A DNA stretch of 64,000 nucleotides from a virus, in the IMG/VR virus record IMGVR_UViG_3300036981_000255, positions 34,617 to 98,616 of that record. One strand, given 5' to 3'. Of this stretch, positions 3,156 through 39,852 are shown in pieces. The notes beneath the pieces were generated by a model. That model searched no databases. It worked only from the letters and a program-made list of their open reading frames with translations, and was not told the DNA's origin. The translations under genes and the position numbers were made by a program. The first letter of the stretch is position 1; every line of letters starts with the position of its first letter.

Positions 3156-3234
3156 TGGAATTAAAACTCATAAATTCGTTTATGACAAACCTCGCAAACA
3201 GTTTGTGATAAACTCGTAACCTCGTTATGATAAA
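3156..3234 (-). repeat. three tandem palindromic boxes (TCRYAA..TTRTGA); inverted copy of the tnpB upstream region
   Basis: Reverse complement of 3156-3192 matches 5018-5054 at 35/37 nt; units TCATAAATTCGTTTATGA, TCGCAAACAGTTTGTGA, TCGTAACCTCGTTATGA. Confidence 0.75.
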
Positions 3235-4767: not shown

Positions 4768-4811
4768 CAATATAACAACCTTTTAACATTATTAAAGTGA
4801 TGGCAATAGAC

Positions 4812-4874
4812 AAAAAAAAGACATTCAAAGGATATTCAACCGAAAAATCCGTTGAAATTCTTTGAATGTCTTTT
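4812..4874 (-). terminator. strong intrinsic terminator
   Basis: Perfect 15-bp arms AAAAGACATTCAAAG (4816-4830) / CTTTGAATGTCTTTT (4860-4874), an inner TTCAAC/GTTGAA pair, and a U-tract on the minus strand. Confidence 0.7.
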
Positions 4875-4996
4875 GACTTGGGGATGTCTTTAGACTAGAT
4901 AAAAAAACTGATGAAAGGTTAATAAAGTATTGTCATCGTTAATCAGTAACCATACAATATCGTTGAAAATCATATAAAAGTTCCATAAAAAAAACT

Positions 4997-5054
4997 TTAT
5001 CGCAACCGAGTTTACGAAGGTTTATCATAAACGAATTTATGAGGTTTAATTCCA
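4997..5054 (+). repeat. two tandem palindromic boxes upstream of tnpB (element left end or operator)
   Basis: TTTATCGCAACCGAGTTTACGAAGG then TTTATCATAAACGAATTTATGAGG; homologous to 3156-3234. Confidence 0.7.
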
Positions 5055-5056
5055 AC

Positions 5057-5064
5057 TATTTATA
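5057..5064 (+). promoter_or_regulatory. late promoter motif TATTTATA upstream of tnpB
   Basis: Exact motif ~33 nt before the TTG start. Confidence 0.55.
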
Positions 5065-5096
5065 GTTATATTATAACAAAAACAAAACACTATCAA

Positions 5097-6359
5097 TTGC
5101 TAAGAACATCCCGACATAGTATCAGTAACACAGCAAATCAAGGCAAACTCAATGTTTTGGGGCAATTCGTTAATGATTACAAACATGATGTTCAATTGTT
5201 TGTTAATAAGATTGTCAAAGGTGAATTTCCGTTACAAACACTATATTCTCCAAAGGGTGTTGAAGGTGCAATCTTAAAACACAGTAAATACAAACGTGAC
5301 ATTTACACAAAAGCAAGTCAAATAGTTAGAGGAGAAATAGCAGCAGCCGAGGAACGCAGATACCAAGCCTACAAGAAATTGTACAAGAAACTTATTAAGC
5401 TAAATATTCATACTGCATTCACTAATAAACGATATAGCGAACTGAACCTCAAACACATTTTCAAAACCGATTTTTTCACTATTCCAGAAATCAAAAATAT
5501 CACTATTGATTTGGCAAAAGATTTGGCTGACATTCAAGACGGCAAACACTTTGACAATTTTGTAAGAATCAAACTTCCATATTTCAATGAAAAAGGCACA
5601 CGAGCCTTACAAATCAAGTTACCAGTCAAAAATTACAAACATTCAAACAATTTTATCACTAAAGGTTACACAAGAAAAACGTCAATCCAACTAAAGAAAG
5701 TCAATAACAAATTCTTCATAAACTTCTTGTGGGAAAAAAACGAAATCAAAAAATCAAAACTATCTTTCAAACCCAAAGTAAAAGCCAAATCAAAAACAGA
5801 CGAACGCCCTAAACAAAGCGACATAATTCTATCCAAAACAGATAACTCAATGGGCATTGACTTAGGCTACAAAAAACTAATTGTAACGTCTAAAGGTCAA
5901 ATCTTAGGAACTGATATGATAAACATTTACAAGAAATTGGTGGCTTGTAAAAGTGGAACAGCAAAATATAAACGTTTAAAAAGAGAACGAGATAACAAAA
6001 TAAACTTCTATGTCAATCAAATTGACTTTGATGGTGTTGAAGTTTTGAAAATCGAAGACCTCAAAGACGTAAAAAAAGATTCAAAAGGTAAAAAATCAAA
6101 AAAGATAAATTCACTTCTCTCAAAATGGATTTATCCAAAAATTATAAGTAAAATAACGATGACATGTGAGGACAAAGGTATTTTGTTGGTAAAGGTTTTA
6201 CCAGCATATACATCACAAACATGTTCATCTTGTGGTGAAATACATAGAAAGAGCCGTAAAGGTGAACTTTACAAATGTGTTTCGTGTGGTTTTGAATTGG
6301 ATGCAGACTTAAATGCAGCAATCAATATCAATAACAGAGGGAGCTTGCAGTCCCCTTAA
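5097..6359 (+). CDS. tnpB: TnpB-family RNA-guided endonuclease (IS200/IS605/IS607 type), apparently intact, no adjacent TnpA
   Basis: RuvC-I MGIDLG, RuvC-II LKIEDL, zinc ribbon TSQTCSSCG...YKCVSCG, RuvC-III DADLNAAINI. Confidence 0.93.
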   Translation: MLRTSRHSISNTANQGKLNVLGQFVNDYKHDVQLFVNKIVKGEFPLQTLYSPKGVEGAILKHSKYKRDIYTKASQIVRGEIAAAEERRYQAYKKLYKKLIKLNIHTAFTNKRYSELNLKHIFKTDFFTIPEIKNITIDLAKDLADIQDGKHFDNFVRIKLPYFNEKGTRALQIKLPVKNYKHSNNFITKGYTRKTSIQLKKVNNKFFINFLWEKNEIKKSKLSFKPKVKAKSKTDERPKQSDIILSKTDNSMGIDLGYKKLIVTSKGQILGTDMINIYKKLVACKSGTAKYKRLKRERDNKINFYVNQIDFDGVEVLKIEDLKDVKKDSKGKKSKKINSLLSKWIYPKIISKITMTCEDKGILLVKVLPAYTSQTCSSCGEIHRKSRKGELYKCVSCGFELDADLNAAININNRGSLQSP

Positions 6360-6448
6360 CCAAAAAACTGGATTTGTGTGAAAATGTGAAATCTTTAGGA
6401 TTCTATGTTTTTATATGGATTTGGTAACTCTTAGGCAGTATTGCAGTT
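6330..6448 (+). ncRNA. putative omega-RNA 3' region of tnpB: right end to ~6428, guide from ~6429
   Basis: Expected position overlapping and downstream of the tnpB 3' end; sharp switch at 6429 to tail-tube-homologous sequence. Boundaries are inferred. Confidence 0.55.
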
Positions 6449-6500
6449 GGATTGAAAATGAAATTTCTCTAACTTTAACATCAGTGTAGTCAAAAGTTCC
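6429..6500 (-). pseudogene. 72-nt fragment of a divergent tail-tube allele (3' end)
   Basis: Translates GTFDYTDVKVREISFSIQLQYCLR versus resident GEFSYGDAKVREISFTIQPQRCLR (6881-6952): 17/24 aa identical, ungapped. Confidence 0.88.
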
Positions 6501-6860
6501 CATCTACCTTAAAAAAAGAAGAAGGGCGTTTCATTGTAATTTATACAGAACAAGACTTATCAAGCAAATTATTAAAACAAAATATTGTCAAATTGTCTGG
6601 AACAGACATAACAAACAAAACACGTCATAAAACAAGTGAGAATCGTTCCAAAGAAACAAGGTTACATCGTTTTTGAAGTGGTCTATGAAGTCAAAGAAAT
6701 TCCAAAAAAGAAAGACAATAAACGTTACCTTTCAATAGACTTAGGCATCAACAATCTATCAACGTTATCAAAGCACAAATCATCAACGGTAAACCACTAA
6801 AATCAATAAACCAAATTTCCAATAAACAAGTATCAAAACTGAAATCAATTATCACAACGA
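6499..6860 (+). pseudogene. tnpB: frameshifted internal remnant of a second, different TnpB (IS1341-like)
   Basis: Fragments GRFIVIYTEQ..IVKLSGT, IKQVRIVPKKQGYIVFEVVYE, RYLSIDLGINNL (RuvC-I) and INGKPLKSINQ in shifting frames. Confidence 0.8.
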
Positions 6861-6871
6861 TAAATAAAAAA

Positions 6872-7363
6872 CTAGTAAAGTCTTAGGCAACGTTGTGGTT
6901 GTATAGTAAATGAAATTTCACGGACTTTTGCATCACCATAACTAAATTCACCAAAATCTAATTCACCTGTTACAATGGCATTTTCAATCAACCATTTAGA
7001 TACTGCTACACCAGTTGGGTCTAATAGTTCAAGTTCAAGATTTTTTGCGCATCCTATATTGTATCCCATACGACCTGTGGCAGATTCAGCGTGAAGACGT
7101 ACCCACTCCATCAATGCTTCACCTTGAGAGGGTGCAACAAAATCTCTAACTTTTATTGCCATTTCTTTCCACTCATACGAGCCATTCACGTATGTTTTAG
7201 TATTTAAAAAAGCAATATCAATTTTTTGCAAGGACATTTTCGGTGAACCGCAAGATATTAATGACCATGTTTGAATACCAACATCTGATGGAAAACGTAA
7301 AATCCAACGATTTGTTAGCATAATTTCATATTGCAAAGGACTTTTTAATAGTAAATCCGCCAT
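6872..7363 (-). CDS. tail tube protein (T4 gp19-like)
   Basis: NRWILRFP, W..MAIKVRD, LMEWVR..AES.TGRMGY, LLDPTG; downstream of the sheath. Confidence 0.88.
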   Translation of the reverse strand: MADLLLKSPLQYEIMLTNRWILRFPSDVGIQTWSLISCGSPKMSLQKIDIAFLNTKTYVNGSYEWKEMAIKVRDFVAPSQGEALMEWVRLHAESATGRMGYNIGCAKNLELELLDPTGVAVSKWLIENAIVTGELDFGEFSYGDAKVREISFTIQPQRCLRLY

Positions 7364-7494
7364 GATAATCAGTAAGTTATATATTTTATTTGTTCTTTGT
7401 TGTTGCTCAATTTTGGCAACCTCTTTTTTATTCCAAAGATAAACTTTATGAATCTTTATATTAAATATCAGTCAAATGATTTTTTTTATAATCA

Positions 7495-9224: not shown

Positions 9225-12200
9225 TTAAATATTTGTAAAATCAACCCCTACTGGTGAAAGCACAAATTCAATGTTGATGTACTCTAAAGTTCTAATAGGT
9301 TGAATCGCAATTTTACAATTCATGGCATTACTATTGAAACTATCGGCTGAACGGTCAATTTGAATTTGATAATCAAAAATACCACGTTCATCACGGATGT
9401 TCGCCAAAATCGGATTCACAAGATTTTCAAATTGTCTTCTGACTTCTTCATCGTTTTGTTCAAACAATAATGTTAAAGACACATCTTCAATTAAACGTCT
9501 CATGTACAAGATTAAACGTCTAACGTTGATACGGTCAAGAGCAGATTCTGCAATTTGTAGATTTTTATTACCCCAAATATACACTGGGCTAGTTCCGTTT
9601 GCTTGTTTGAGTGTGATAAGTGAATTGATACGTCCTTCAAATAAAGCATCACGCTCATCGAATGTCAATTTCTTTCTCGCTTGTCTAAATTCAGTTTCAC
9701 CTATTTTTGTACCAGCAGCAGCGCCCCAAGGTTTTCTCAATTTATCATTCAAAGCAAAAATACGCATCGCTTCAGCAGTGGGTGGCAACCACAAATAAAC
9801 ATTGTTCACTTCATCAAACATTTGACCCCAAGGAAAATACGTTGCTGTATAACTTGAGTCAAACAAACCATCAATTACACCAGCAGCATCTTTTGCTTTT
9901 AAAGTTTGTCCACCTGAATCTTGGTCAAGAGTAGTTGTAACGTAGAATGTATCACAACGCTCGTTTTCAACCATATCAATAGTTTCTTCGATAAGGTCAG
10001 TGTTTTCAGTTGTGTTCAAATTAGGTGTTGCCAACAAGTTCATACGAATTTCATCTCTATTCGCTAGAACTCTGATACCTTCCAAATATGCGTAAAAGTC
10101 AGAATTGATAACAGTTTGACCGTTATTGATATTTTCAGAAGAATATACACCAAAATTTCCACTGACTAAACCTTTTTGTCCAAGGCTTCCTTTTACAGAA
10201 TATTGGTCTGTGTTTGTACGTCTTTTTCTATGAATATCCCAACCGTCAAAGCCACCATAAACCATCATTGTGAATTTTCTTGCGAAAACTTGTTCGTAAT
10301 CAGTACCAACCATGTCAGATTCGTTTTGGAACGCAAATTCACCTCTGTCAAACTCTACAGCTCCAAAGCCTTCAACTGTTACCCCTGTGGCATTAACGTC
10401 CATGTGGAATCCATGTGTTGAACCTGTCCAAAATGGCAAATCTGGGTCAGATGGAACACCTTTATAAGTGAAAAAGTCAGCGTCAAAACCTAATGTGTCT
10501 GTAAATCCAAGGTAAACTTGACGTATTCTGTCAAAATCTTCGTACTTAGTTTTATAAACAATTTGCGGAGCTAAAGCACACTCGTAATCACGAACAGGAT
10601 AGCCTTCAAAACCTGCTGGGAATGATTCATCTTGACATTGAACACCCATTTCAATCATAATGTGCTTACTTTGCAACACATGGTCTCCATCGACTGTACC
10701 AATACGTCTTGCGATATAGTTGGTATCATTGGCTCTCAACGTAACGTTTGTGAAACTTTCCAAAACCACAGGACGTTTATCTGTATCACCATAAGAACGA
10801 ACTTGAACATCAAAAGATTTTTTGTCAGGTCTTATGTTTGTAATAGACACTTTAACATCAGTGTTTGCAGCATCACCATCAGAAAATGTATGGAAACGGA
10901 ACAAACGGAACACTCTGTTACCACGAAGCTCGGATACAACCCAAGGTGTCATAGCAGGTTGATATGGCTCTTTGTAATCGTCCAAATCTTGTGTATAACA
11001 AACAGTCGGCTTGATACAATAAATCAAACCATTTTCGTACAAATAATTGAATGTTGTACCAAAAAATTCCTCCAAATATAACTGTGTTGCAGGTGGGCAA
11101 CAAGGAATAAATTGTGTAAATACACGTAGAATGAAATTCTTTTTGGTTTTGTCCAATGATACGTTGTATTCAAAAGCAACACCATTTCTGTTTGTTCCTT
11201 TGATTAAGAAATCGTCCAATGGTTTTATAATGCCACCATCCAATGATTCAATAGTGACAACATTTCCTTCAACCGCAAAATTTAGAATTTCATCTCCGTC
11301 ATAAGTTGCAAATGAACGAATCAAAGCAACAATAGTGTTATCGTATTGAGCATAAGGTGTTCCTGACAATTCAATAACAGTTCCACTAAACTCGTGTGTC
11401 ACTAAACCCGATGGAATTTGGGAAACCACTTGTTGTGTTGTGCCAGAAACCACCGAAGTTGTGATGATAGTTGTACCAGTTGTGATAGTGAAATTGACAC
11501 CTTGAATGGTTTCACAGTCATAAACTGCTGCGTTTCCTGCCAAGTCGCAAATTTTATATTCACCGCCACTGAAAACGTCACCGTTAGGGAAGAAAATCGA
11601 ACCATTTTCAATCACTATAGAACCGTCAACATTATGTGTAATTGTTCCACCGACTAAAGTTACAATTCCAGATTCTACAATGGTAAGTTCATTTGTATCA
11701 ACGTTTTGAACAACCATTGGGTTAGTAACTGTAATAACAAATGTACTATCAGTAGTAACTGTACCACCACTATAAAGCACAAGACAATTTTGAACTTCAC
11801 TTGGGACATCAATTGTAACACCAACAGCAGTTTCACCTGTGATACAAATATAAGTTTCTTCTGATGTCAGCAATTGCATGGTAAATCTTGCGCCTGTGAA
11901 GGTTGAACAATCGCCCATCAATGTATTCCCCAAAGAAACTGATTGACCAGTCGCCAAATCTGCTCCACCGAAAACAGTAGTTGCAATTTCACCTGCATCA
12001 TACAAATCTTGCAAAACGGTGTTGCTGAAAGTTACGTTAGAAACTGCGCCATTTGCATACTTGATAGTAGCAGTGAAAGCAGAAGTTGAAGTTGTTGTGA
12101 TAGTTGCAGGGTCAAGTGATGCGCCAAAAGAAATACCCCAAGAATCACCAGCATCATATCCTGTGAATCCTAAAATTCTACTGACGAATAGTTGGTCTGA

Positions 12201-12458
12201 TTCTTTCAAATATTGTTTTGCAATATACGACCCTTCGTAAATCGGTTGTTGACCTTCTGCATATTTACAAGCATCCAAATCTCCAAAGCATTGTTTGAAA
12301 AGGGAATAAGTATTAATTGCGATAGGTGTAAATGCACGTCCTTTGGGAAACTCACCAGCTATACCCAACGATGTTATACCAAAGTTTTGAGTGGTGAAAG
12401 TTAAGTCAGTTTCAGTAAAATTTATAGACGGACTAAGATTTGGTCTTTGAGTTGCCAT
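9225..12458 (-). CDS. contractile tail sheath protein (T4 gp18-like) with large insertion
   Basis: SPSINFTETD, GEFPKG..F.P, YTATYFPW, RDALFEGRIN, LDRINVRRL, LLFEQND, PIRTLEYINIEF. Confidence 0.95.
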   Translation of the reverse strand: MATQRPNLSPSINFTETDLTFTTQNFGITSLGIAGEFPKGRAFTPIAINTYSLFKQCFGDLDACKYAEGQQPIYEGSYIAKQYLKESDQLFVSRILGFTGYDAGDSWGISFGASLDPATITTTSTSAFTATIKYANGAVSNVTFSNTVLQDLYDAGEIATTVFGGADLATGQSVSLGNTLMGDCSTFTGARFTMQLLTSEETYICITGETAVGVTIDVPSEVQNCLVLYSGGTVTTDSTFVITVTNPMVVQNVDTNELTIVESGIVTLVGGTITHNVDGSIVIENGSIFFPNGDVFSGGEYKICDLAGNAAVYDCETIQGVNFTITTGTTIITTSVVSGTTQQVVSQIPSGLVTHEFSGTVIELSGTPYAQYDNTIVALIRSFATYDGDEILNFAVEGNVVTIESLDGGIIKPLDDFLIKGTNRNGVAFEYNVSLDKTKKNFILRVFTQFIPCCPPATQLYLEEFFGTTFNYLYENGLIYCIKPTVCYTQDLDDYKEPYQPAMTPWVVSELRGNRVFRLFRFHTFSDGDAANTDVKVSITNIRPDKKSFDVQVRSYGDTDKRPVVLESFTNVTLRANDTNYIARRIGTVDGDHVLQSKHIMIEMGVQCQDESFPAGFEGYPVRDYECALAPQIVYKTKYEDFDRIRQVYLGFTDTLGFDADFFTYKGVPSDPDLPFWTGSTHGFHMDVNATGVTVEGFGAVEFDRGEFAFQNESDMVGTDYEQVFARKFTMMVYGGFDGWDIHRKRRTNTDQYSVKGSLGQKGLVSGNFGVYSSENINNGQTVINSDFYAYLEGIRVLANRDEIRMNLLATPNLNTTENTDLIEETIDMVENERCDTFYVTTTLDQDSGGQTLKAKDAAGVIDGLFDSSYTATYFPWGQMFDEVNNVYLWLPPTAEAMRIFALNDKLRKPWGAAAGTKIGETEFRQARKKLTFDERDALFEGRINSLITLKQANGTSPVYIWGNKNLQIAESALDRINVRRLILYMRRLIEDVSLTLLFEQNDEEVRRQFENLVNPILANIRDERGIFDYQIQIDRSADSFNSNAMNCKIAIQPIRTLEYINIEFVLSPVGVDFTNI

Positions 12459-12476: not shown

Positions 12477-12484
12477 TATAAATA
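12477..12484 (-). promoter_or_regulatory. late promoter motif TATTTATA (sheath operon)
   Basis: Exact motif ~19 nt upstream of ATG 12458. Confidence 0.7.
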
Positions 12485-38046: not shown

Positions 38047-39570
38047 TTATCCAATGTGGGTAATATATTTTCGCAAATGGGCAATATTTTTTTGAATATA
38101 GGGAACTAAAATGTTTAAAAAGTCACTTTGCTCATTTGCTTTCTTTTCTTCATTTTTAATTCGAGTTACTGATTCATAATGATAACAAACAGCTTGACCA
38201 ATATAAATATTCTTTAATCCGTGAGAAATACAATTGAAATTCAACAACACATCTTCAAAGCATTCAGTTACATTTTCATTGAATGCTCCCAAAAATTCAA
38301 AAGTCTCTTTTCCAATCATTAGAAATGCGCCTGTATTCCCAAGGGTGTCATATTGTTTGTCATAAGACGCTTTATAATAACTTCTTATGCCTATATGTGA
38401 AAGTCCTATGTGGTTTTGTTTGTTGTGAAAAAGTGCAATGCCACCATGTTGAATGGTGTTGTCTGCATAATGTAAACGACAACCAATTGTTCCAACGTGT
38501 TTTTCGTGTTTGTTGTAAGTTTGAATCATTAGAGAGATGGCATCATTTATCATAACCAAATCGTCATTAGCAAATAACAAAACTTCTGTGTCTGTATCAA
38601 TATAATCGAAGACCATTGAGTTATTGATTTTGGCGAAGTGATAGTATGGAAATCTGACGATGTTGATTTTATCATTGTGGATTCCATTAACAGATTTGCA
38701 CAAATCTTTGACTTGCTCAAATTTGTCTTCGGATGAACCAGTATCAGCTATGTAAATTTTGTAATTGGTGTATTTTGTTTTGAGAAGGGATTGGACACAA
38801 GTATCTAAATAGTCAAAATTGTCTTTTGTTGGAATTATAATAGCCAATTTAGGCTCTTTTGTGAGTTTGATTGGCGAATGGTCAGCAATAACGTTAGGAA
38901 CGATTTTTAAAGGCAAATATTGACCATAAAGGTTTTCAAACAATGCTTTATTTGTGTGCCATTGTTCATTTGGCATTCCAATTGAATCATGTTTCACGAT
39001 TATATCGGTTATTGTTCCGACCTTAACACCTTGCAGGTGGTTATTTACACATATTGGGAGGTCATAAAAGTGAAAACCTACAAATCGCTCGTCAAAGTTA
39101 GATTCGATACGTTTTTTGTGTAGCGCTATAAATAAGCCATCTATGACTAAAGAAGAAAGAATTTGATTTGAAAATCTTTGGCAATATTGAGACTCATGCC
39201 ATCTGTCAGTCTTTTGATTGTTGTGGTACACTGGGTGAAATACACGTCCAAGCATCTTATTAGAATCTGCCCACCATTTTCCGCTTGCGAGGTCTGTTGT
39301 GCCAGCAAGACCTAAAATTCCATAATCAGATTTTTCAAAATAGTCAACTATTTTTTTATCCCAACCCTTTTCAAGATAAACGTCATCATGAACACAAACC
39401 AAAATGTCATATTTTGATTGTTCTATTGCTTGATTATAGGCTTTTGCCAATGAAGTTGAACCATCATTGACAAATTCGATAACTTCAATGTCTTTGAGGA
39501 CACAACTCTTTTGAAGTCGTTTGCTGATGGATTTATTTGAAAATCTTGTGGAATAGAAGATAGAAATCAT
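38047..39570 (-). CDS. double-domain GT2 glycosyltransferase (start MISIFYSTR)
   Basis: VCVHDD, IDGLF, FHFYD; IIIPTKD, ANDD, GCRLHY, TGAFL, FEDV. Confidence 0.88.
   Translation of the reverse strand: MISIFYSTRFSNKSISKRLQKSCVLKDIEVIEFVNDGSTSLAKAYNQAIEQSKYDILVCVHDDVYLEKGWDKKIVDYFEKSDYGILGLAGTTDLASGKWWADSNKMLGRVFHPVYHNNQKTDRWHESQYCQRFSNQILSSLVIDGLFIALHKKRIESNFDERFVGFHFYDLPICVNNHLQGVKVGTITDIIVKHDSIGMPNEQWHTNKALFENLYGQYLPLKIVPNVIADHSPIKLTKEPKLAIIIPTKDNFDYLDTCVQSLLKTKYTNYKIYIADTGSSEDKFEQVKDLCKSVNGIHNDKINIVRFPYYHFAKINNSMVFDYIDTDTEVLLFANDDLVMINDAISLMIQTYNKHEKHVGTIGCRLHYADNTIQHGGIALFHNKQNHIGLSHIGIRSYYKASYDKQYDTLGNTGAFLMIGKETFEFLGAFNENVTECFEDVLLNFNCISHGLKNIYIGQAVCYHYESVTRIKNEEKKANEQSDFLNILVPYIQKNIAHLRKYITHIG
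39532..39536 (+). other. TAM/target-like pentanucleotide TTTAT directly 5' of the resident near-match to the orphan guide
   Basis: TTTAT|TTGAAAATC...; IS200/IS605 elements insert 3' of AT-rich tetra/pentanucleotides. Confidence 0.6.
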
Positions 39571-39612: not shown

Positions 39613-39660
39613 AATATTTGCAATCAATATCAAAAACAAGATATATCTTTTGCAAATATT
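39613..39660. repeat. 11-bp inverted repeat upstream of the orphan omega-RNA
   Basis: AATATTTGCAA (39613-39623) / TTGCAAATATT (39650-39660). Confidence 0.6.
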
Positions 39661-39672
39661 AAACAAAAAACA

Positions 39673-39852
39673 GTCTGTTTATGGAACAGAATCGGACTCT
39701 AAACAAAAACAGGGTAAGGCGTTGCTAAAGTCTTCAGAAAAAGAGCAAAGAAAAATGCTTCGATTTGTCGCAAGCAAGTCTACGACCTCTGATGCTCATC
39801 TACATCAGCAATGGTGTGGGTGAGCAGTTCACTTGAATGTCTAGTGGAATAA
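39673..39852 (+). ncRNA. orphan TnpB omega-RNA (IS200/IS605 right end ending GTTCAC at 39832) plus guide; no TnpB ORF
   Basis: 15-bp stem TGCTCATCTACATCA-GCAA-TGGTGTGGGTGAGCA (39793-39826) with 3 G.U pairs and a GNRA loop, then GTTCAC; further hairpin TGCTTCGA-TTTG-TCGCAAGCA; 5' part resembles IS605-type tnpB 3' ends. Confidence 0.75.

Follow-up and report, generated by a model that had tools for sequence, protein, structure and literature searches.

What is an intact RNA-guided nuclease gene doing in a phage genome when no transposase accompanies it, and when a second, diverged copy of the end of an essential tail gene begins exactly where its element ends? The question is raised by the IMG/VR virus record IMGVR_UViG_3300036981_000255, a record of 98.6 kb that is about 36% complete and whose source, by these two figures, is a giant phage. 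The stretch analysed here (bases 34617-98616 of the record, 64,000 nucleotides (nt), called the window below and numbered from its first base) contains a transposase-less TnpB element next to the gene for a tail-tube protein, and between the two lies a stranded remnant of an older allele of that same gene. The answer offered here, to which we would give somewhat better than an even chance, is that TnpB uses the stranded gene end as its guide to cut alleles of the same type in co-infecting relatives, and so homes into these relatives or excludes them. Coordinates are collected in Table 1.

Table 1. Features of the tail-tube/TnpB locus (window coordinates)
Feature	Position	Strand	Basis
Intrinsic terminator: 15-bp outer stem and inner stem, then U-run	4811..4874	-	fold z = -4.35; palindrome self-match 4816-4874
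Last two codons and stop (Leu-Tyr-stop) of old allele A	4919..4927	-	left side of element; junction rebuild
Transposase-less TnpB element (IS607-type clade)	4928..6428	+	strong homology to second genomic copy from 4937; right end 6428, possibly to 6431
59-nt box, absent from second element copy	4996..5054	+	inverted copy (86%) of 3156-3212
TATTTATA promoter-like motif	5057..5064	+	32 nt upstream of tnpB TTG start; present in copy 2 too
tnpB (420 aa, TTG start)	5097..6359	+	open reading frame; RuvC D255, E320, D404 and zinc-finger cysteines intact
Predicted omega-RNA 3' scaffold: hairpin 1 (6337-6357), A-rich linker, long hairpin 2 (6367-6425), AAC	6337..6428	+	RNA folding
Presumptive 20-nt guide template	6429..6448	+	directly after right end; only perfect match in record is itself
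Stranded 24 codons (residues about 138-161) of tail-tube allele A	6429..6500	-	ungapped alignment to 6881-6952
Frameshifted internal fragment of second, different, IS605-type TnpB (WED/RuvC-I region)	6501..6871	+	OrfB_IS605, E = 4.3e-6
Working tail-tube gene (allele B, 163 aa, T4 gp19 family)	6872..7363	-	phrog_4542 match; homologues with PF06841

The interrupted tail-tube gene

The 72 nt that follow the right end of the element align without gaps to the end of the resident tail-tube gene, with 49 of 72 nt identical (E = 3e-5 by BLASTN within the record); the minus-strand peptides, GTFDYTDVKVREISFSIQLQYCLR for the stranded copy and GEFSYGDAKVREISFTIQPQRCLR for the resident one, agree at 17 of 24 amino acids. 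The older allele, A, survives in two pieces, 24 codons at the right end of the element and Leu-Tyr-stop at its left end. Joining 4927 to 6429 restores the reading ..QLQYCLR-LY-stop, and the rebuilt site (TAATAAAG followed by TCTTAGGCA) is identical at 16 of 17 positions to its resident equivalent (TAGTAAAG followed by TCTTAGGCA). All 119 full-length tail-tube homologues have x[YF](G) as their C-terminal end. The sequence places the element in allele A at AAAG/T (the slash marks the insertion point), two codons before the stop, with the insertion site and the right end both pinned to within 1-3 nt; insertion at this point would swap the LY of allele A for VTKSI.

The stop of the old allele is followed, after 45 nt, by the terminator; about 2 kb now separate this terminator from the working tail-tube gene, allele B, which has no terminator 3' of its own stop on the minus strand between 6501 and 6871. 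Allele B is found 372 nt beyond the stranded end, behind a fragment of a second TnpB (TnpB-2, the intact gene being tnpB1 where the two must be told apart). Read in the direction of the tail-tube gene, the order of the locus is: tube body; end B and its stop; dead TnpB-2; end A, interrupted by tnpB1; LY-stop; terminator. The TnpB-2 fragment, which reads ..VRIVPKKQGYIVFEVVYEV..YLSIDLGINNL..INGKPLKSINQ.., is truncated at both ends, abuts the resident tail-tube stop codon and has no other copy in 98.6 kb. Because it lies between the two tube ends, the 3' end of this gene has evidently been invaded by two unrelated TnpB elements.

Did the two ends arise in place, by local tandem duplication of the tail-tube end and neutral drift of the copy that had fallen out of use? 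They are, after all, direct repeats only 380 nt apart. The pattern of substitution nevertheless excludes it. The proportions of differing synonymous and nonsynonymous sites (pS and pN) are 0.66 and 0.22, a ratio of nonsynonymous to synonymous change (dN/dS) of about 0.17. When 23 random substitutions were simulated, they produced on average 14 amino-acid changes, and a stop codon in 71% of trials; not one of 20,000 trials combined seven or fewer amino-acid changes with the absence of a stop. The stranded fragment, moreover, agrees with the family consensus (GTFDY, FS, QYC) at sites where the resident allele departs from it. Duplication followed by drift deserves next to no credence. By these patterns, alleles A and B diverged as functional genes under purifying selection, in different phage lineages; recombination between phages must then have built the locus. 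The history as a whole (insertion into A, union with B by inter-phage recombination, two TnpB invasions at one gene end) is well supported by the arrangement of the sequence.

Which of the two ends came from outside? The sequence-only reading that preceded this analysis had called the guide allele foreign. In one sense the term holds, for the allele evolved as a working gene in another lineage (the pS and pN values again), but the roles are possibly reversed: the native allele could be A, which is contiguous with a native-looking gene end (L-Y-stop) and with the terminator beyond it, while the resident end B may be the import, abutting as it does the fragment of the other TnpB, though it is contiguous with the body of the gene. 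The stranded fragment itself is the ordinary insertion-site flank of the element and not an acquired spacer.

The nuclease, its RNA and its guide

The nuclease looks functional. It contains a Cas12f1-like TNB domain (PF07282, E = 2.9e-20); the three RuvC residues and the four cysteines (CxxC..CxxC) are invariant in a 22-sequence alignment, and the segment DADLNAAINI aligns to the Cas12f RuvC-III motif. An AlphaFold model (predicted local distance difference test, pLDDT, 79.7) adopts what is predicted to be the Cas12f/TnpB fold (WED-REC-RuvC): full-length Foldseek comparison retrieves AsCas12f (E = 8e-18), ISFba1 TnpB 8IAZ (2e-14) and ISDra2 TnpB (3e-11), with template-modelling (TM) scores of about 0.3 because the domain arrangement differs. 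The N-terminal 250 amino acids have no sequence match in Pfam or PDB.

A second, intact copy of the element lies outside the window (G000:C1:1235-2661, locus L002) and is 73% identical to the first in nucleotides and 68% in amino acids; between the two tnpB genes dN/dS is about 0.15. This copy interrupts a small, conserved phage gene (about 70 aa; family WF.DRIGK.VYR..C.C..C), whose N-terminal 33 codons are found at its right end and whose C-terminal half (..YTSYCISNVEGFPLDYFD..) is found at its left end, the left boundary having three in-frame options. (A minor point concerns the start codon: tnpB begins with TTG instead of ATG in both genomic copies, at 5097 of the window and at 1343 of L002, and the two closest database relatives, P0122 and P0123, begin with Leu, so that the start is apparently TTG there too.)

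Homology between the two copies breaks directly after ..GGTAAC(T), at 6428, and 16 relatives from phage contigs have the motif ..TAGTAAC T[AG]T followed by unrelated DNA. With the right end defined in this way by the second copy and by the family motif, the start of the guide is known to within 3 nt. The two-hairpin architecture of the omega-RNA scaffold is also predicted in the second copy and in the distant relatives L168 and L158 (z from -3.7 to -5.6); in these four diverged members the fold ends 3 nt before the boundary, and hairpin 1 shows compensatory changes. RAGATH-18 is the right-end RNA (reRNA) motif of ISFba1; no Rfam family was matched in the window. Self-comparison of the record disclosed no second copy of the scaffold sequence downstream, and without such a repeat of the scaffold 3' end a CRISPR-Cas12/TranC-like mini-array was rejected.

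The presumptive guide, TCTTAGGCAGTATTGCAGTT, is identical to the resident TCTTAGGCAACGTTGTGGTT at positions 1-9 and mismatched at positions 10, 11, 12, 16 and 17; the rest of the 98.6 kb has no site that differs from it by five mismatches or fewer. The candidate target-adjacent motif (TAM) is AAAG at 4924-4927, and the resident allele likewise has AAAG (6877-6880) in front of its guide-like site with the five mismatches (6881-6900); two insertion sites, the spare copy at locus L228 (see below) and the resident site together suggest AA[AC]G. The TnpBs of IS607 elements have AG-rich TAMs, 20-nt guides and a sensitivity to single mismatches (PMC11061315), so that a resident site with five mismatches should be safe. 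The Logan assemblies contain a variant (P0242) that is 97% identical to the resident tail-tube protein; of the five residues that differ, three are among the last 24, and one of these is a change of CLR to CIR, within the seed region of the guide.

Nine consecutive matches beside AAAG could also be read in another way: TnpB might have been domesticated as an RNA-guided regulator of the TldR type, with this 9-nt seed directing its binding to the 3' end of the resident tail-tube gene. TldRs are nuclease-dead, however, whereas the catalytic D-E-D residues are intact here and invariant in the clade, and the resident site is at the 3' end of a gene and not at a promoter. A TldR-like repressor was rejected on account of the intact catalytic residues, and is very improbable.

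Clade and transposase

A serine recombinase is encoded directly upstream of tnpB in relatives L157, L160 and L164, which identifies the clade as IS607-type. The element itself contains no serine-recombinase TnpA and so is not an autonomous IS607 insertion sequence, and neither a Y1 nor a serine-recombinase (Resolvase) transposase was matched above cut-off anywhere in the 98.6 kb, which is about 36% of the genome. The family has 421 stretches in IMG/VR, against about six full-length members in 185,579 prokaryote species genomes. Among 80 IMG/VR relatives, 64 have no TnpA-like open reading frame (ORF) within 3 kb and 16 have a serine-recombinase-like ORF upstream. By these counts the clade resides mostly in viral contigs, and most of its copies are without a transposase. 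(In four IMG/VR relatives, L158, L161, L163 and L166, a small ribbon-helix-helix ORF directly precedes tnpB in the position of the transposase; in L167 and L177, TnpA is reduced to its helix-turn-helix part.)

Is this nonetheless a transposon maintained in the classical way, by a TnpA that is encoded in the remaining 64% of the genome or by the host, with TnpB doing no more than restore excised copies on sister genomes? The incompleteness of the record leaves room for such an enzyme, and one-fifth of the relatives (the 16 of 80 just mentioned) do have a recombinase-like neighbour. Set against this are the lack of a TnpA in 98.6 kb, the 27% divergence of the two genomic copies, which gives no sign of recent transposition, and the 80% of phage-borne relatives in which TnpA is absent within 3 kb. 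Maintenance of this kind is improbable.

The same layout at other loci

Diverged direct repeats were surveyed at 62 non-redundant loci of the family, with inverted and shuffled controls, none of which reached 40 bits. Strong repeats of this kind flank the element at three of the 62, L228, L225 and L158, and their copies are 74-80% identical in nucleotides. At L228 (2609-3931), a gene of 903 aa has a spare C-terminus of 36 codons, with tnpB 25 nt further on and the native copy of the same codons beginning precisely at the right end; most of the differences between the copies are synonymous (pN 0.10, pS saturated). AAAAG stands in front of the spare copy, which departs from the guide (starting at TATAATATGG) at guide positions 4, 5 and 7. 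At L225 (2415-4175), the arrangement is the same for the first 34 codons of a gene and its promoter, and the stranded copy again starts exactly at the right end. At L158 (1577-4479), the element stands between a stranded 70-codon tail of an SNF2-helicase gene and the working tail; tnpB runs antisense to the helicase gene, which is the topology of TnpB-2 at the tail-tube locus. A search for empty-site relatives of the L228 and L158 host genes found none.

The window holds one further object of this sort, an orphan right end: an omega-RNA-like element at 39660-39832, structured and GC-rich (43% against 32%), that lacks a tnpB and ends in GTTCAC. The 34 nt that follow it (to 39866) agree at 29 positions with the antisense strand of the opening 34 nt of the neighbouring glycosyltransferase gene (38047-39570), and the mismatches fall at guide positions 6, 7, 11, 20 and 26. 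The 17-mer at this orphan right end (39.8 kb) returned chance matches only.

Expression and neighbouring genes

The TATTTATA motif ahead of tnpB behaves in a promoter-like way: 12 of its 28 occurrences in the record (for example at 12477, 27941 and 5057 of the window) are within 60 nt upstream of a same-strand gene, the tail sheath gene included, and only four of 28 occurrences of the comparison sequence TATAAATA are so placed. The 59-nt box points into the downstream gene at both of its sites, tnpB at one and a minus-strand small gene at the other, and is probably a regulatory module, operator or promoter.

The sheath gene occupies 9225-12458. PF06841 is present in several of the 2,408 homologues of the tail-tube protein. 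The closest relatives are P0242 (97%) and P0002 (83%) for the tube protein, and P0121 (identical) and P0122 (90%) for TnpB.

What the element may do

The scheme proposed at the outset would run as follows: 1) TnpB would be expressed from a phage promoter, and its omega-RNA would close with a guide transcribed from the stranded allele A. 2) The complex would cut unoccupied A-type 3' ends of tail-tube genes (AAAG, then the target) in co-infecting relatives. 3) Repair from this genome would then insert the cassette, and the resistant B end might or might not go with it; failed repair would disable the rival phage. 4) The resident B allele would escape, because five of the 20 guide positions are mismatched there, positions 10-12 among them.

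A wider proposition, to which we would give something short of an even chance, is that the mostly viral clade moves between giant phages in the form of RNA-guided "cut-and-rescue" cassettes, with no transposase involved. A conserved gene end, in its unoccupied allelic form, would be what each cassette cuts; the stranded native end would be the guide template, and a recoded spare end would keep the gene both working and immune; the tail-tube 3' end would be a hotspot, invaded twice in the present case.

Several observations weigh against these proposals, and they are of three kinds. The first concerns the target. The exact guide 20-mer has no match in IMG/VR, and a degenerate codon scan of the same database for Q-x-Q-Y-C-L-R-L-[YF], the A-type allele, also returned nothing; among 5.8 billion proteins the C-terminus closest to the stranded peptide agrees with it at 18 of 24 residues. 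The relatives with a guide-matching tail-tube allele that the sequence-only reading had predicted did not appear in either scan. BLASTN of 4800-7400 against 50,697 phage records gave no match. The 150 tail-tube relatives that were compared (80 loci from IMG/VR and 70 from Joint Genome Institute (JGI) metagenomes) are all 60% identical or less, and none has a TnpB within 5 kb of the tube gene or shares neighbour genes.

The second kind concerns the guide and its use. The stranded allele has Leu (CTG) in QLQ at a position that is Pro in 116 of 119 homologues and Leu in none; the guide template may be decaying, and would mismatch real targets at guide position 17. The candidate TAM is drawn from only two to four sites. 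Read-through from the tail-tube operon, finally, runs antisense across tnpB.

The third kind concerns the layout. By comparison with the clean cassette at L228, the tube body here lies beyond the right end, and it is the dead TnpB-2, not tnpB1, that stands between the duplicated ends. The second element copy is a plain insertion without a spare gene copy.

Much of this can be gathered into a different account, in which the locus is an inert scar: insertion of the TnpB element damaged the tube C-terminus, illegitimate recombination with a relative restored the gene, and what remains is a guide without a living target and a locally idle TnpB. The failure to find an A-type allele in the IMG/VR scans, the Leu at a near-invariant Pro and the plain insertion of the second copy, which splits a small gene with no rescue, are all as this account would have them, and so are the two illegitimate junctions (6500/6501 and 6871/6872) that flank the dead TnpB fragment. 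What it does not readily accommodate is that two diverged copies of TnpB, both intact, have evolved under purifying selection with no transposase in 98.6 kb, that the RNA scaffold is conserved, and that duplicated gene ends recur in other family members, where the native end begins precisely at the right end. We regard the inert scar as the main rival, though a rather unlikely one, and continue to prefer a nuclease aimed at A-type alleles.

As description, the sequence-only reading has worn well. The diverged 72-nt copy of the tail-tube C-terminus after the right end, the nine matches of the guide to the resident site and the mismatches that follow, the intact RuvC motifs, the missing TnpA and a promoter motif ahead of tnpB were all found as it had them, and its right end near 6428 is where homology with the second copy breaks, with up to 3 nt of uncertainty in the start of the guide. 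Its interpretation, an RNA-guided homing or competition nuclease, is borne out in part; it had overlooked the L-Y-stop remnant, the TnpB-2 fragment and the second element copy.

Known systems

Against the IS607 TnpB of ISFba1 (PDB 8IAZ; PMC11061315), the protein is alike in size (about 390-420 aa), in its RuvC D-E-D and zinc finger and in its matching fold; alike too are the serine-recombinase TnpA directly upstream in relatives, the guide taken from the right-end flank and the A/G-rich candidate TAM. The differences are the lack of an Rfam match, the N-terminal 250 aa unmatched in Pfam and PDB, the TTG start, and a clade that is mostly virus-borne and mostly transposase-less.

The TnpB of IS605 elements cuts the vacated donor site, and the transposon is thereby restored ("restorative homing"; Meers et al., PMC10055086). 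A 2026 review proposes a "non-restorative homing" into co-infecting phages or plasmids, the phage case being theoretical and the only evidence cited coming from plasmids (PMC13565253). The present locus resembles both in that the guide matches the empty site, and that a cut followed by recombinational repair would copy the element in; it differs in that the target would be an essential gene of a rival phage instead of a sister chromatid, and in the presence of a resistant second allele in the same genome.

A closer likeness in layout is provided by fungal mitochondria, in which mobile endonuclease ORFs bring in a foreign gene C-terminus and strand the native one (Allomyces atp6; Glomus atp6, atp9, cox2 and nad3), the inserted and native ends being 64-81% identical (PMC3630166). 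The corresponding values are 68% for the tail-tube ends and, as noted, 74-80% for L228, L225 and L158. Here, too, two diverged copies of a gene end, one apparently functional and one stranded, stand beside a nuclease gene, and the gene body with its inserted end, the endonuclease and the stranded native end all have their counterparts. The nuclease, however, is predicted to be RNA-guided, with the stranded end doubling as its guide template, and tnpB1 lies beyond the stranded end, so that the duplication flanks the dead TnpB-2.

The T-even phages offer the functional parallel. Their free-standing homing endonucleases SegF, SegB and Mob bring about intronless homing and marker exclusion (summarised in PMC13565253). 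In common with these, a nuclease gene lies beside a conserved essential gene, and self would be told from non-self by substitutions in that gene; recognition, in contrast, would be by a 16-20-nt RNA guide instead of by a protein. By analogy, we infer that the locus is the RNA-guided counterpart of intronless homing, arranged in the manner of the mitochondrial endonuclease ORFs with a spare gene tail.

Significance

A TnpB acting alone as a homing endonuclease between co-infecting phages is still a theoretical entity in the 2026 review (PMC13565253). The tail-tube locus and its look-alikes are natural candidates for the part, and they come with defined guides, candidate TAMs and resistant alleles for cleavage and interference assays. 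Should the proposal prove true, it would show how RNA-guided nucleases persist without transposases and would explain some of the mosaic boundaries in giant-phage genomes. It would also supply a plausible selective step on the way from transposon nucleases to weapons between viruses.

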